IMG/VR virus record: IMGVR_UViG_3300015177_000008
Coordinates: 32,001-96,000 of that record
Reading direction: 5' to 3' (one strand)
Source of the DNA: a virus
Taxonomy: Duplodnaviria; Heunggongvirae; Uroviricota; Caudoviricetes
DNA length: 64,000 nucleotides
How positions within the stretch are numbered: the first letter of the stretch is position 1; each line of letters begins with the position of its first letter. This document shows, one piece after another, positions 5,038 to 63,403 of the stretch. The notes under the pieces were generated by a model, which saw only the letters and a list, made by a program, of their open reading frames with translations, ran no database searches and had not been told where the DNA came from. The translations under genes and the position numbers were made by a program.

Positions 5038-5101
5038 TTCACTCTCCGTAGTGTCTTGATTATTTTTCTATTTTATAGCCGTAAGTATGTACTTACAATA
5101 C

Positions 5102-5129
5102 AAAAAAGCCCCGTAAGGATGGCGGGGCT
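5102..5129 (-). terminator. Rho-independent terminator (minus strand)
   Basis: On the minus strand agccccgccatccttacggggct followed by TTTTTT; lies just downstream of the 5164-5475 gene. Confidence 0.55.
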
Positions 5130-5163
5130 GTCGTACTGTCGACTAATTACCACTTGCACATTA

Positions 5164-5475
5164 TCAGGCTATTGCCATCACTGATGCTCTCTGAATTTCT
5201 TGCTGGGCCACGCGGTTAACTTCCATCAAAGCCAGTTCGAGCTGATGTTCCGGCCACATTCTTTGAAATGCCACCCAGCCTTTTCCACGCTGGCGACGAA
5301 CATTCATTACATAACGAGTAAAGGTGTTTTTATCGAAAGACACCGCTGTTTCACGGAACAGACGAATAGAGGTCCCATTGGCAACGATGTCCAGCAAAGT
5401 TAATTGAGCAACCAGTGCAGGCTTCTCTTTTCTCTTCTGGTCTTTGTCCAGACCAAGAACCAATGATTTTTTCAT
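5164..5475 (-). CDS. Hypothetical protein (103 aa)
   Basis: ORF 5164-5505 trimmed to ATG 5475 (MKKSLV); motif AAACAACTTGTTT 12 nt upstream. Confidence 0.5.
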   Translation of the reverse strand: MKKSLVLGLDKDQKRKEKPALVAQLTLLDIVANGTSIRLFRETAVSFDKNTFTRYVMNVRRQRGKGWVAFQRMWPEHQLELALMEVNRVAQQEIQRASVMAIA

Positions 5476-5628
5476 CACAACTCCGTAAACAACTTGTTTT
5501 CTCAATGGCGTAAATAATACCAGTAAGAAAACGGCTACAAAGCATATTGATCAGGCGCATGAGCGATATGCAGGTTCTTCCCTGCGGCTATAGAGAAATT
5601 AAGCCAGCAATGCTGGCTTTGGTTGGGG

Positions 5629-5958
5629 TTACTCGAATACTTCAAGAAACTCCTGAACGTCCCAATGCTGGACGAGGTGAAGATAGACCTTAGAAATCAC
5701 GTCATTTTCGCTATCGCATGTGAAGTAGTACTTCTGGCTGCGGTTGTATGTGTCCACACAAAATTCGCTCATATCCATAAAGTCAGCATCTTCACCCATG
5801 TCGCAAATCATCAAAGCAGGTGCGTCATCACGAGTCATCAGCTCCAGCACCCATCTTGAATTGATCAGAGTGGAAGACCAACCTTCTAACTCATAAAACT
5901 GATCAAACTCTTTTTGAGTTAATTTCTTGATTTGGTTGATGTCGATATTTGTAAACAT
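5629..5958 (-). CDS. Hypothetical acidic protein (109 aa)
   Basis: ORF 5629-6024 trimmed to ATG 5958 (MFTNID); motif AAACATGTTGTTT 13 nt upstream. Confidence 0.5.
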   Translation of the reverse strand: MFTNIDINQIKKLTQKEFDQFYELEGWSSTLINSRWVLELMTRDDAPALMICDMGEDADFMDMSEFCVDTYNRSQKYYFTCDSENDVISKVYLHLVQHWDVQEFLEVFE

Positions 5959-6096
5959 AAAGCAATCCTTAAACATGTTGTTTTCTGAATTGCGTAAACA
6001 ATACCAGTAAGAAAACGGCCACAAAGTATATCGTTACGGTGTTGCGCTGCCCGGAGGTTAATAGCGACAAAAGCCACCGTGCTGGTGGCCTCACTC

Positions 6097-6315
6097 TTAA
6101 TCTTCGTCGCCCGGGAACTCGCTGTGTACCGCGTCCACCAGCTCCCGCTTTTCATCTTCACTCAGCAGGTGCCAGATATCCTTCCCCTTGGGCGGTTCCC
6201 CTTCTGCCGGGACGAACGACCACAACTTGCGGTACAACTCCGGCCCCACTGCATCCAGACACTCAGCCAGGGAATCCACGCCCCACACCTCAACCGTCAC
6301 AGGCATCTTAATCAT
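6097..6315 (-). CDS. Hypothetical acidic protein (72 aa)
   Basis: ORF starting atgattaag with SD gaggatg; motif copy at 6348-6365. Confidence 0.45.
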   Translation of the reverse strand: MIKMPVTVEVWGVDSLAECLDAVGPELYRKLWSFVPAEGEPPKGKDIWHLLSEDEKRELVDAVHSEFPGDED

Positions 6316-6693
6316 CTCTTCATCCTCACTTCGTTTATATAACGTCTAAACATGTTGTTTACTTGTTGGTGTTATTATCGCAATAAGACAAAGGCGGAAA
6401 AGGATTTTATGTCGGGAAAGCCAGGCGGGTAGTGAGTATCCGGGAACGACACGGGAACCAGTATTTACGATATTCTGCTCTACGCGCGCCGCAGGGCTGG
6501 TGGGCAGAATTTTCTTCTCCCCGAAAACCTACTGAAATCGATTGTGACCCGCTGACTGTCTGGCACAATTACGCTGTAGCTGGGCATTCAGAGGGAATCC
6601 AGCGGTAAGCAAGTCCGCCTACGTGAGCGCCTCTCTTCTTCCCGCACATTACAGGTGGGTAGCCGCAACTCTCCCTCTCGCTATACCGGTACG

Positions 6694-6831
6694 CCGCCGT
6701 TCCTGAACCGGCATCGAGCCTTTTCCCGAAATCCACACAGGCAACTCAACCGTTTCCCTGAAAATCCCCAGCCGTTCCCCGAAGGCAACCCAGCCGTTTT
6801 TGTAGCGGGATGCAGCCTTTTCCCTGTATGG
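6694..6831. repeat. Iteron-like array: six direct repeats of GCCGTT(T/C)CC(C/T)GAA with about 22-bp periodicity
   Basis: Copies start at about 6694, 6718, 6749, 6771, 6793, 6815; inverted CGGGAA copies at 6413-6460. Confidence 0.5.
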
Positions 6832-61144: not shown

Positions 61145-61350
61145 TCAATCAATCCATTCTAACTTATACTATGGTAAGGAATACTACTAAAATTTGTATC
61201 AATACTGAATACATCTATATCAGATGCAAGTTAATTTTCTTACCTATTTTGGGCTGGTTTTTCTCCATGCATGGACCTTTGCTCGGTCTTACAAGTGCCT
61301 GCCGAAAAAAAATGATAATAGCTTTACAACCCTAACCTTTGATGTAATAT

Positions 61351-61367
61351 CGGTAAGCACTTACCAG
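61351..61367. promoter_or_regulatory. Family-2 palindrome CGGTAAGCACTTACCAG 30 nt upstream of the XRE-like gene
   Basis: Perfect GGTAAG/CTTACC arms; candidate autoregulatory operator. Confidence 0.45.
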
Positions 61368-61396
61368 AGAGAATTAAACGCGCAAAGGTTGTAACA

Positions 61397-61783
61397 ATGT
61401 CTGACAACAAGATTGAATTTATAGAAAGTCGCTATGCTGCTTTTATCGCAGGGCTGATTGAATCCTCACCTATGAGTCAGGCCCAAATAGCCAGACTTAT
61501 TGGTTATAAAAATGCCAACAACCTTTCTTTAATTAAAAGTGGCAAAATTCCTTTGCCTATCGATAAGGTTCGTCCGCTGGCGCTGGCACTGGGTATTGAG
61601 CCAAGTCGTCTTATGATGATGGTGCTGGAAGAACGCCAACCCGAACTTGCAGCATTTTTATACAAAGAAGGCACTGCTCCTCTTAACGAGGACGAAAAAC
61701 AGGTTCTTGCTGCATATAACGAGCGATTCGGTAAAGAGAAAGGCGCATCACAAAAGGTTGTTGAGGCCATAAAGTCTCTATGA
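61397..61783 (+). CDS. XRE-family helix-turn-helix regulator (candidate repressor)
   Basis: 128 aa; MSQAQIARLIGYKNANNLSLIKSGK resembles an HTH; adjacent to the recombinase. Confidence 0.55.
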   Translation: MSDNKIEFIESRYAAFIAGLIESSPMSQAQIARLIGYKNANNLSLIKSGKIPLPIDKVRPLALALGIEPSRLMMMVLEERQPELAAFLYKEGTAPLNEDEKQVLAAYNERFGKEKGASQKVVEAIKSL

Positions 61784-62881
61784 AAAATTTACACGAATAA
61801 GCTCTGTTGATAGACGATCTCCCTTAAATTTGTGGTCAATTTCGTCTAAATCCGGTTGCTCTACGATTGATGCGATGTACGTCGAGAAACTTTCTAAGGC
61901 GTCTCGCATCTCGTCCATATAATCGTGCCGGTCGTAGACCCGATCTATCCCCTCAAGACTGTGGTTCATGATTTTGCGTGATACCTCCTGGCTTATGCCT
62001 AATGCTGGGAAGTAACTACGCGCAGTACGGCGCAAATCTCGGGGTGTAAATGGCTCAAGCTCCATCAGTTCTGGTCGTTCCAGAATACGACGTAATGCCT
62101 GGGCTATTGCCACTTTAGACATAGGAAGGTCTTTCCCGATTTTTTTATTCGAAGGCACGAGCCACTGGCTGTCTTTACCGTATTCGAACAACTCTTCAAT
62201 GCATGTGCGCATTAATGTGCTTAAAGGCAGAGAATGCTCACGGGCAGATTTGTTCCTCTTGCCTTGATTCCAAACCCCACGCTTAAGATTGAACTCACTT
62301 TTTTTAGCCCGCAGTACTTCGTCAGGTCGTCTTGCGGATACAAGACATAGCCTGGCCGCCCATTTTGTACCAGCGCACACATTGAAGTAGTCCCATATAT
62401 TCCAGAACACCCATACCTCTGCGTCAGTCAGCTTCCGCTCGCGGGGCGTGGGCTTTGCGCCACCGGCAACTTTGTTAAGTGACATATCGTTTAACGGTGA
62501 CACGTCTATCATCCCCTGGAAGGCGCACCAGCTAAGGAACTGCTTCATTAGAGAGAAAACGCGGCGGCCCATAACAATTTTGCCATCCAGTATTAGTGGG
62601 TTGACCAGTTGGTTCACCATGAACCTATTAATGTCACTTACTTTTACATCGGCAATGTGCGGCAAAACATGTATCAAAATACAATGAACAGCGATCTCTG
62701 GCCGACGTCTGGTTATCAGCAGAGATAAGCGAGTGAATAACATGAATGCGTCCGAGAATCTCAAGTCATTGCTGACCTGGGAGATCATAACGGCCTGCAT
62801 TTGAGATGCTCTTTCGAGATACTCTATCGCCTCTTTTGAGGTGTTCTCCGCAGCGCGTGCTCTGTCAAAGCTATTTTTCAT
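61778..62881 (-). CDS. Tyrosine recombinase/integrase family protein
   Basis: 367 aa; C-terminal catalytic-like region PRDLRRTARS ... HSLEGIDRVYDRHDY. Confidence 0.75.
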   Translation of the reverse strand: MKNSFDRARAAENTSKEAIEYLERASQMQAVMISQVSNDLRFSDAFMLFTRLSLLITRRRPEIAVHCILIHVLPHIADVKVSDINRFMVNQLVNPLILDGKIVMGRRVFSLMKQFLSWCAFQGMIDVSPLNDMSLNKVAGGAKPTPRERKLTDAEVWVFWNIWDYFNVCAGTKWAARLCLVSARRPDEVLRAKKSEFNLKRGVWNQGKRNKSAREHSLPLSTLMRTCIEELFEYGKDSQWLVPSNKKIGKDLPMSKVAIAQALRRILERPELMELEPFTPRDLRRTARSYFPALGISQEVSRKIMNHSLEGIDRVYDRHDYMDEMRDALESFSTYIASIVEQPDLDEIDHKFKGDRLSTELIRVNFS

Positions 62882-63091
62882 ATGACAATCACCGAGTTAC
62901 GCCGATGCACTGTATAAGTAAACAGTATATTAGGCATAGATTCTTATAGGATCAAGAGTAAAAGTAACTCATTTTCAGCAATGATTCCATACATAGTAGG
63001 TATGGAATCATTTTGACGTTGTTTTTTGAATTTTAAGGGAAATGGGAGTGAGTTTGGTGGGAATAAAAACGGCTCCTGTGAGCCGTTAAAA

Positions 63092-63337
63092 TCAGAGGGT
63101 GCTGACGTATGCAGCCAGTTCTGTGTATCCGCCAATCGGCTGGCCTTCGATCAGCACCTGGGGGATAGTCTCTACCGGTTTACCAACAATTTCACTTAGT
63201 TTTTCCTTGTCGATACCGGCAGTGGTGATGTCGATGTACTCATAATCACCGTAGCCATGTCCCTTTAGTTGCTTCGCTAGCTCGACCGCACGTTTGCAGT
63301 ATGAGCAGTTATCTCGTCCGTAGATAGTGATCGTCAT
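63092..63337 (-). CDS. grxA: Glutaredoxin (GrxA-like)
   Basis: MTITIYGRDNCSYCKRA (CxxC active site), GKPVETIPQVLIEGQPIGGY; start trimmed to ATG 63337 after SD gagg. Confidence 0.8.
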   Translation of the reverse strand: MTITIYGRDNCSYCKRAVELAKQLKGHGYGDYEYIDITTAGIDKEKLSEIVGKPVETIPQVLIEGQPIGGYTELAAYVSTL

Positions 63338-63377
63338 TGTTACCTCATAGAATTGATATGCAACTTTACTCACAAAG

Positions 63378-63403
63378 AAGATAGGTATGTGCATACTTAT
63401 CTT
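63378..63403. promoter_or_regulatory. Family-2 palindrome AAGATAGGTATGTGCATACTTATCTT upstream of the glutaredoxin gene
   Basis: Near-perfect 26-bp palindrome about 40 nt upstream of the start. Confidence 0.45.

Follow-up and report, generated by a model that had tools for sequence, protein, structure and literature searches.

The DNA analyzed here is a stretch of 64,000 nucleotides (nt) from the viral record IMGVR_UViG_3300015177_000008 (positions 32,001 to 96,000; hereafter, the window), in which a palindromic sequence, or dyad, recurs in front of many genes. By megablast, the window is part of an SSU5-like Escherichia coli phage-plasmid, with 99 to 99.6% identity to plasmid p108_MLI108-3 (NZ_CP117002.1, 108,353 bp, circular; hereafter, p108), ~98% identity to Escherichia phage Cyrano, and ~77% identity to Salmonella phage SSU5. 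Relatives of the SSU5 type include pMT1 of Yersinia pestis, pHCM2 of Salmonella Typhi, and Klebsiella elements carrying resistance genes, and ~900 records of the plasmid collection match the window. Nearly all of its genes lie on the minus strand. It comprises an accessory island, with metG, apbC, and genes for an inverse autotransporter (1,416 amino acids [aa]), MarR, PerC, and a UmuD-like “DNA repair protein,” together with most of the replication, recombination, and nucleotide metabolism genes. The full annotated p108 record was mapped onto the window (record positions 1 to 21,859 at an offset of +42,140, and those from ~84,000 upward at an offset of minus 66,213), which places the lysis, tail, head, and ParB-like genes outside it. 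The evidence on expression and on late-region sites comes mostly from relatives 98 to 99% identical to the window rather than from the window itself. Among the scans for related loci, the genome scan yielded five and the viral scan mostly close relatives. Full-text literature searches returned no description of lysogeny control in SSU5-like phage-plasmids and nothing relevant on the motif sequence; a preprint that had looked promising dealt with a phage-plasmid family that is unrelated.

The dyad is made up of the half (GA)TAGGTAAGT followed by the half ACTTACCTA(TC) and extends over 18 to 22 bp; its 18-bp core is TAGGTAAGTACTTACCTA, the flanks are GA and TC, and the half-site consensus reads R-A-T-A-R-G-T-A-A-G-T. 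We counted sites by their mismatches to the fixed 18-bp core and derived the expectation from 300 first-order Markov simulations. The window holds 6 sites with up to three mismatches (0.013 expected; simulated maximum, 1), 10 with up to four (0.12 expected; simulated maximum, 3), which is an ~80-fold enrichment, and 15 with up to five (1.3 expected; simulated maximum, 5). At the six-mismatch level, 38 matches stand against 10.4 expected, and a single match of this quality is not above chance. The signal resides in the dyad, since the half-site alone is barely enriched: the bare 9-mer has 16 matches at up to one mismatch versus 8.9 expected, a weak, ~2-fold excess. An unbiased enumeration of 5-mer dyads ranked TAAGT-N4-ACTTA at the top in the window. 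Iterative refinement of a position weight matrix drew in doubtful sites (17519, 20718, 25443, and 43426) and was dropped for counting.

A sequence-only reading of the window had gathered 12 coordinates into one palindrome family, lying 10 to 90 nt before genes and missing from the chromosomal block. The simulations bear out its premise that the motif exceeds random expectation, and the accessory block (~6,000 to 17,500) is indeed free of sites at up to five mismatches. Eleven of the 12 coordinates fit the core; that at 5081 is weak, but it has an orthologue in SSU5. The placement upstream of genes also holds, but the distances to the minus-strand start codons actually run from 2 to ~180 nt, with two exceptions, namely, the site at 18919, which precedes a truncated gene, and that at 25065, which is ~510 nt from rnhA. 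Members that had been missed are those at 44541 (four mismatches) and 31773 (five) and the degenerate orthologues at 44868 and 25065 (six each).

From left to right, the weak first dyad (5082..5099, five mismatches) lies 44 nt upstream of the gene at 4642..5037 (minus strand), and its SSU5 orthologue, at 93166, has four mismatches. The next (18919..18936, four mismatches) sits at the backbone edge of the accessory island, 43 nt before an open reading frame (ORF) that ends after 18 codons; the SSU5 site, at 84179, has one mismatch. This ORF (start at ~18,875, minus strand) is a truncated backbone ORF with the site-free accessory island (~6,000 to 18,600) downstream, and the island seems to have entered a backbone unit that was under site control. 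The dyad at 23890..23907 (three mismatches; SSU5 79905, two) is 130 nt upstream of a BRCT-domain gene (23265..23759, minus strand), and the copy at 25065..25082 is a probable decayed orthologue of an SSU5 site in the same gap (78710, three mismatches). At 26019..26036 (two mismatches; SSU5 77652, two), the dyad is 12 nt upstream of the gene at 25773..26006 (minus strand) and covers the predicted start region of a promoter-like TTGCCA-17-AAAAAT just upstream. The gap between the MazG gene and thyX contains two sites with five mismatches each: one (31636..31653) lies 12 nt upstream of thyX (start at 31623), with four mismatches in the same gap of Cyrano, and the second occupies 31773..31790.

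The nrdA gene is preceded, at 46 nt, by the dyad at 36350..36367 (two mismatches; SSU5 67776, one), which fills the spacer of the promoter-like TTGATA-17-TAATAT (36371 to 36343, minus strand). The site at 41034..41051 (three mismatches) is 113 nt upstream of sbcD and overlaps TTCACG-16-TATACT; the sbcD gap of the Acinetobacter relative has its own variant site. At 44541..44558 (four mismatches), 2 nt before a small ORF, the dyad overlaps the -10 hexamer of TTTACA-17-TAGTAT in a block kept in five genomes. The degenerate copy at 44868..44885 is 14 nt upstream of the gene at 44578..44853 (minus strand), and pMT1, pHCM2, and SSU5 have three to four mismatches in the same gap. Following the recA terminator, the dyad at 46494..46511 (three mismatches), 33 nt upstream of the gene at 46260..46460 (minus strand), lies in the spacer of TTGAAA-17-TATCAT (46518 to 46490, minus strand), with no difference in its 18 bp among E. 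coli, SSU5, pMT1, and pHCM2. Likewise, the dyad at 51280..51297 (three mismatches), 85 nt upstream of the gene for a gp32-like single-stranded DNA-binding protein (SSB), is in the spacer of TAGATA-17-TATCAT, and its 18 bp are identical in five genomes.

The site at 58689..58706 (five mismatches) precedes the gene for a CobS-like AAA ATPase by 59 nt, and a variant site occupies the cobT/cobS gap of the Acinetobacter relative. Within cobT, the window has a doubtful match (60020..60037, six mismatches) whose orthology by position is unproven. Relatives carry cobT-internal sites with two to three mismatches (SSU5, 43662; Klebsiella L008, 14676; pMT1 [L009], 14998; pHCM2 [L010], 18499) ~900 nt from the cobT start, of which the window retains at best a six-mismatch remnant; such a site may be an internal control point or an intragenic roadblock. 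The dyad at 61350..61367 (four mismatches; inner 14 bp, GGTAAGCACTTACC) directly abuts the -10 hexamer of the promoter of a gene for an XRE-type helix-turn-helix (HTH) protein and is a proposed autoregulatory operator. Finally, the dyad at 63382..63399 (four mismatches) lies in a divergent gap, 45 nt upstream of grxA (minus strand) and 111 nt upstream of a plus-strand gene. As a separate observation, several sites are followed within ~5 to 15 nt by a GC-rich hairpin, located before the ribosome-binding site and in some cases carrying a terminator-like T-run (the nrdA leader, 36321 to 36342, and the p108 late gaps near record positions 39,680, 46,030, and 56,100), while a terminator precedes others (46528 to 46548, ahead of the site at 46494). 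The hairpins after the sites could be 5' stabilizers or leader terminators under antitermination.

Over the complete p108 record, we found 26 sites with up to five mismatches, 15 to 17 of them within the window. All but one lie in annotated noncoding DNA, which makes up 17% of the record (binomial P = 1.5e-18), and they occur in all modules. In the late region, sites precede the holin gene, two tail genes, the major-tail (Ig-domain) gene, and an Ig-like gene beside the capsid gene; the site before a scaffold-like DUF6651 gene falls within the 3' end of the portal gene, and the portal gene itself has one in the 26-nt terminase/portal gap. Another occupies the divergent gap between the ParB-like and helicase genes. 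No site was found in p108 at the plasmid-state genes repA, parA, the toxin-antitoxin pairs, and hicAB. SSU5 has 22 sites with up to four mismatches, distributed as in p108, including a terminase/portal site with a single mismatch, and the regions of Klebsiella, pMT1, and pHCM2 contain 9, 6, and 8 sites, respectively, at the same threshold. The regulon had been proposed to consist of replication and recombination genes; one dispersed, element-specific site does stand before many backbone units, but this definition is too narrow, given that sites in p108 and SSU5 also precede holin, tail, major-tail, head, and ParB genes and occupy the terminase/portal gap. When orthologous gaps of E. coli, SSU5, Klebsiella, pMT1, and pHCM2 were aligned, the dyad and the adjacent promoter-like hexamers formed an invariant block in gaps that otherwise diverge (the SSB gap, the gap after recA, the gap at 44541, and the XRE promoter).

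A palindrome can act as DNA bound by a protein or as a folded nucleic acid. To distinguish paired from merely symmetric halves, sites were split and the right halves were permuted among sites. The number of symmetric positions was 178 in p108, versus 181.6 ± 5.3 for independent half-sites, and 192 in SSU5, versus 189.6 ± 4.9. Deviations from the consensus are thus uncompensated, since the symmetry matches the expectation for independent half-sites, as in a dyad operator of ~14 to 22 bp. The alternative, in which the palindromes work as hairpins (terminators, RNase processing sites, or mRNA stabilizers), could draw on the intergenic position of the sites, often beside genuine GC-rich hairpins, and on individual folding energies: the values predicted for RNA hairpins lie between -9.1 and -1.7 kcal/mol, and the copies at nrdA (-9.1 kcal/mol; z = -4.0) and 63382 (-6.1 kcal/mol; z = -4.3) fold well. 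Yet the sites at 46494 (-2.3 kcal/mol), 51280 (-2.2 kcal/mol), and 23890 (-1.7 kcal/mol) fold no better than shuffled sequences, and the first two, weak as they are, remain base-for-base identical across four to five genomes, so that sequence has been kept between genera rather than pairing. In addition, the stems are AT rich, with no consistent T-run behind them, and there is no excess of pairing over independent half-sites. Hairpin function is very unlikely on these grounds, and we discarded the hairpin or terminator reading on the symmetry statistics and folding energies. The conserved feature is the sequence of each half, which is the signature of a dimeric DNA-binding protein.

The dyad differs among lineages. 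The SSU5-like Acinetobacter baumannii plasmid NZ_CP140436.1 has no site of the E. coli type but 31 of a distinct though related dyad, TCAGTCAGTACTGACTGA, across its 108 kb. These sites occupy, among others, the terminase/portal, helicase/ParB, sbcD, SSB-like, cobT/cobS, and preholin gaps, and three lie upstream of the XRE homologue. A second A. baumannii plasmid has yet another dyad, TAGTAAGCGCTTACTA, with 10 sites in 40 kb, and the E. coli type and the two Acinetobacter types fall cleanly apart in a motif-by-locus matrix. The binder must be encoded by the element and not by the host, because a single host species carries differing dyads; specificity diverges as immunity regions do. The notion that the motif is a site for a host transcription factor, or an artefact of composition or chance, is hardly conceivable. 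It could appeal to the AT-rich motif resembling intergenic DNA and to the weak enrichment of the half-site, but these are outweighed by the enrichment of the full dyad, the differing dyad types within A. baumannii, and the absence of sites from the chromosome-derived accessory block. The host factors LexA, Fur, NarL, IHF, and NAC do not fit the consensus of the dyad. A candidate fourth type, the “K2” motif GATAAGTAAATACTTATC of the Klebsiella plasmid NZ_CP055187.1, was not counted: the late region of this plasmid has E. coli-type sites, and the register of K2 is ambiguous from the 4-bp periodicity of TAAGTAAGTA. Separately, plasmid p2 of Klebsiella sp. PO552 (L014) has a seemingly asymmetric hybrid site, TAAGTAAGTgCATACATA, with one half of the E. 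coli type and the other different. It occurs only five times (2199, 2605, 4551, 14116, and 33447) and also lies ~70 nt upstream of the XRE gene, whose product has the helix GFPNVNTLSIIKAGK.

Which protein binds the dyad? The XRE-type gene (61397..61783, plus strand) encodes 128 aa, and its homologue in Cyrano, CYRAN_45, is annotated as a “putative repressor.” The protein matches PHROG 8, “transcriptional regulator,” with an E value of 6.6e-12, and has no NCBIfam match and no significant sequence match among solved structures. An AlphaFold 2 model from the single sequence is all-helical, with helices at residues 28 to 35 and 41 to 47, and its listed fold neighbors are all HTH proteins of the XRE/Cro-CI type (C.AhdI, HipB, lambda cI, and Stl) save MPnS (6b9s), the best E value being 0.16. 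The gene lies beside an integrase gene in 961 plasmid records, from Escherichia, Klebsiella, Yersinia, Salmonella, Enterobacter, Acinetobacter, and others. Its sigma-70-like promoter, TTTACA-16-TAATAT (61323..61350, plus strand), is shared by E. coli, Klebsiella, pMT1, and pHCM2. The -10 hexamer of this promoter ends on the base with which the dyad begins. The combined sequence TAATATC(G/A)GTAAG(C/T)ACTTACCA, in which the dyad abuts the -10 hexamer, has 80 occurrences in related loci (L015 to L099). The earlier observation of a copy at this gene is upheld, and the copy is placed as expected for negative autoregulation.

Two further lines of evidence connect this protein with the dyad. First, where the upstream region was read in variant lineages, the XRE gene has the motif of its own lineage, save for one Klebsiella lineage with only half-site repeats. 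The recognition helix follows the same division: it reads GYKN(A/P)N(N/I)LSLIK in lineages sharing the E. coli motif, and FKRPNVLSMIKSGE, I-NQNMVSFIVRGK, or FPNVNTLSIIKAGK in lineages with other motifs. Second, in RNA sequencing data from a Cyrano lysogen (PMC9928086, supplementary file 2), CYRAN_45 reads 96 against a background of 9.8, or ~10-fold. Genes preceded by a site are at background, with values of 5 to 11, as for nrdA (7.6), sbcD (7.5), SSB (9.1), thyX (11.3), holin (8.6), and portal (9.8), and no site accompanies the genes with strong expression, namely, RepA, ParA, the toxin-antitoxin pairs, and HicAB (PMC9928086). The XRE gene unites a proposed operator at its own promoter with expression in the lysogen of a 98%-identical relative. 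The top-expressed gene of the element in that lysogen is a different one, CYRAN_43 (Cyrano 40268..40822; ~700-fold over background), between the integrase and glutaredoxin genes; at its position, the window has only ~200 bp (62882 to 63090), and the gene appears to be absent.

Two other products of the element might bind the dyad instead: a conserved protein with a ParB_N domain, acting as a KorB-like regulator or DNA organizer, or the small product of orf70, the gene divergent from the XRE gene. A ParB-like protein is encoded in every lineage, SSU5 included, and the divergent ParB/helicase gap has a site in E. coli, SSU5, Klebsiella, and Acinetobacter. Covariation cannot separate this protein from the XRE protein because both diverge to similar identities between E. 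coli and Acinetobacter (39 to 44% and 41%, respectively); the expression data did. Against the value of 96 for the XRE gene, the Cyrano lysogen has values of 5.0 and 9.5 for the two ParB-like genes, and since these genes are at the detection floor or background, their products cannot hold the prophage silent. A ParB-family regulator of this kind would have to be present in the carrier state, where these readings are at or below background. Moreover, a Pfam scan of the two ParB-like proteins found ParB_N only and no HTH, and orf70, which is expressed at ~2-fold background in the lysogen and is missing from SSU5, encodes no recognizable DNA-binding domain. We consider a binder of either kind quite unlikely.

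SSU5 provides a natural deletion of the candidate. It has no homologue of the XRE gene or of the divergent orf70. Compared with pHCM2, from which it otherwise differs little (~96% identity elsewhere), SSU5 lacks a 7.5-kb block containing orf70, the XRE gene, the integrase gene, grxA, Gp49, phoH, and others (SSU5 [L005], ~42,639 to 42,673; pHCM2 [L010], 19,505 to 27,044). pHCM2, pMT1, and the relatives from E. coli and Klebsiella all have this block, and nine of the other SSU5-like phage records contain the XRE gene. The SSU5 record names a host and no carrier plasmid, and the phage was presumably isolated as a plaque former. Loss of a maintenance repressor with retention of its operators is as the repressor model predicts. 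The persistence of the sites may reflect a recent deletion, and it fits a role in lytic growth as well.

Taken together, we consider it reasonably probable that the dyad is the operator of the phage-plasmid's own repressor, most likely the XRE protein, which would silence essentially all lytic units. That the effect is repression and not activation, which protein binds, and the role as a roadblock are all points that we infer. According to this model, a repressor dimer would bind ~26 copies of the dyad spread over the whole phage genome, so that nearly every lytic transcription unit stays off during replication in the plasmid state. Because many of the copies lie over the spacer, -10 hexamer, or start site of a sigma-70-like promoter, RNA polymerase would be kept out by a bound dimer. 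The repressor's own promoter, where the dyad begins with the final base of the -10 hexamer, would be under negative autoregulation. The genes required in the plasmid state (repA, parA, and the toxin-antitoxin pairs) are site free. The sites had been described as operators before operon-leading genes, and this stands for many backbone transcription units, but several gaps are too tight for a promoter. The terminase/portal gap and a few others contain no promoter-like sequence and leave no room for one; copies in such gaps may be stoperator-like roadblocks to read-through or weak internal control points.

Could the dyad be a site of activation instead? A phage activator, or a phage-specific promoter part, might turn on lytic promoters and shut the XRE promoter, in a dual role similar to that of Cro. 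There is a parallel in the palindrome of the Lpa-dependent late promoters of P1. In about one-third of the sites, moreover, a -10-like TAnnnT begins at the downstream edge of the dyad and the -35 hexamer is weak, which puts the dyad center near -20. However, the dyad has no constant place with respect to promoter-like hexamers: it occupies the spacer at 46494, 51280, and 36350, the -10 hexamer at 44541, and the start site at 61350 and 26019. Such variable placement is common among repressors and uncommon among activators. Some sites are 11 to 17 nt before a start codon, as in the terminase/portal gap, with no room for a promoter, whereas several others overlap good sigma-70 promoters (TTGAAA-17-TATCAT and TTGAAA-17-TATGAT) that should need no activator. 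A single factor would also have to activate early replication genes together with late head, tail, and lysis genes, and no candidate activator was identified. We regard activation as improbable.

Several results nevertheless weigh against repression by the XRE protein. Its match to Pfam HTH_19 (E = 0.0015, 18.9 bits) falls below the curated cutoff of 30.2, and its model, predicted from a single sequence at a predicted local distance difference test score of 73, has no fold match at an E value of 0.001 or lower. The assignment is correlative, all proteins of these elements diverge along one tree, and the promoter of the ParB-like gene has a site too. Candidate unit starts with a site do not differ significantly in expression from those without (P = 0.064), and silence in the lysogen is equally expected of activator-dependent promoters. 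The -35 hexamers are weak at many sites, and promoter scores on the sense strand are only slightly higher (6.0 versus 5.0 bits; P = 0.035 in a test that orthologous sites enter twice). Finally, SSU5, which lacks the XRE gene, retains high-quality sites at least as close to the consensus as those of E. coli, a point that would also suit an activator.

Dispersed operators are known from other phages and plasmids. In P1, the C1 repressor binds ~22 dispersed operators, one of them at its own gene, and keeps lytic functions off in the plasmid state (PMC8546580). The analogy with P1-type phage-plasmids drawn in the sequence-only reading is sound in function, since both are phage-plasmids, both have a dispersed layout for one repressor, and the number of sites is similar (~26 here), but it does not extend to the components. 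The P1 operator is an asymmetric 17-mer, ATTGCTCTAATAAATTT, that has no match in the window at up to three mismatches, whereas the site here is a dyad of 18 to 22 bp. In place of C1, the candidate is a 128-aa XRE-type protein whose only family matches are generic HTH and transcriptional regulator models, and while C1 acts on late genes indirectly via Lpa, here sites stand directly among the late genes.

In the cluster A mycobacteriophage L5, gp71 recognizes >20 asymmetric 13-mer sites located at promoters (operators) and in short intergenic gaps of early and late operons (stoperators); these sites are orientation dependent, and the protein, which has two DNA-binding domains, binds them as a monomer (PMC9283540). 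D29, of the L5 group, is a lytic deletion derivative of a temperate parent (PMC5712189). The system described here likewise has sites dispersed over the genome and in short late-operon gaps (the 26-nt terminase/portal gap and those of major tail, tail, and holin genes), several of them without promoter-like hexamers; SSU5 plays the part of D29, and immunity specificity diverges among relatives. In contrast, the sites here are palindromic and have no orientation, blocking of elongation is only proposed, and the candidate is smaller than the L5 repressor and unrelated to it in sequence, with a single HTH region instead of a monomer with HTH and Stoperator domains.

The XRE-family CI and Cro repressors of lambdoid phages, 434, and P22 invite comparison because the candidate is a small helical protein with a putative HTH, its fold neighbors including the N-domain of lambda repressor and a Salmonella phage repressor (none significant). 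Further likenesses are dyads of 14 to 20 bp over sigma-70 promoters, one of them at the promoter of the repressor gene itself, and a partner gene that is divergent from it. However, lambdoid phages have their operators grouped at two or three loci and not dispersed over ~26, and the XRE candidate has no S24 peptidase domain. The KorA/KorB system of the IncP plasmid RK2 is similar in having about a dozen dispersed palindromic operators (KorB binds 12 dispersed palindromes) and a regulator homologous to ParB, and ParB_N proteins are encoded here. It differs in the sequence and length of its sites, its targets are not phage lytic genes as they are here, and the ParB-like genes are silent in the Cyrano lysogen. 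The dyad system would thus be one of dispersed prophage repressor operators that belongs neither to the P1 C1 family nor to that of cluster A.

Next to the XRE gene, a possible input for induction was observed. A canonical LexA box, CTGTATAAGTAAACAG, lies at 62910 to 62925, 28 nt upstream of the integrase start codon (gene at 61778..62881, minus strand), and the integrase and XRE genes are convergent, with overlapping 3' ends. A CTGT-N8-ACAG box with varying inner sequence is in the same place in two Klebsiella lineages, pMT1, pHCM2, and 68 of 76 viral-contig loci, and ciprofloxacin induces Cyrano 39-fold (PMC9928086). The signal for induction could come from the SOS response, through convergent transcription that runs into the repressor gene. 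A more specific scenario, which as a whole we find possible but doubtful, would be that elements of the SSU5 type, among them pMT1, pHCM2, and the resistance-carrying Klebsiella elements, are silenced by a small dimeric XRE repressor acting on ~26 to 31 symmetric sites, some of which serve as orientation-independent roadblocks in late operons (a Gram-negative dyad counterpart of the stoperator); that repressor and sites co-evolve into immunity groups within one host species; and that induction proceeds via the conserved LexA box, from which transcription of the integrase gene would run convergently into the repressor gene.

Other features of the window are set down here in their own right. A second dispersed palindrome, AAACAAnTTGTTT (13 bp), has 14 matches in the window at up to one mismatch, versus 0.5 expected: 2836, 4533, 4584, 5487, 5971, 6348, 7530, 8845, 8896, 22269, 22998, 33914, 45351, and 60853. 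Eight of these cluster at 2.8 to 9 kb. Five that were measured lie ~16 to 25 nt before minus-strand starts (site/start: 22269/22250, 22998/22973, 45351/45334, 2836/2815, and, at cobT, 60853/60833), nearer to ribosome-binding sites than the main dyad, and this palindrome probably belongs to a different regulator or to an RNA-level element. Many backbone genes also have in common a nearly identical translation start context, AGGAAAAACACATG (for example, at the minus-strand starts 18875, 44853, 46460, 51194, and 58629). The gene for a RecA-like recombinase (46553..48892, minus strand) encodes 779 aa and is annotated with a LAGLIDADG homing endonuclease, while its homologues in SSU5, pMT1, and Klebsiella have ~358 aa; by this comparison, the gene likely carries an intein or a homing endonuclease insertion.

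SSU5-like phage-plasmids are common in Enterobacteriaceae, and a defined operator with a named candidate repressor would give a handle on their quiescence and on phage release. The dyad type would allow these elements to be sorted into immunity groups on the basis of sequence. The model would explain the ability of SSU5 to behave as a lytic phage, and if it is true, the XRE protein supplied in trans should confer immunity to SSU5. The ~30 sites and their regulator, changing together between lineages, would then offer a clean natural example of regulon-wide co-evolution.

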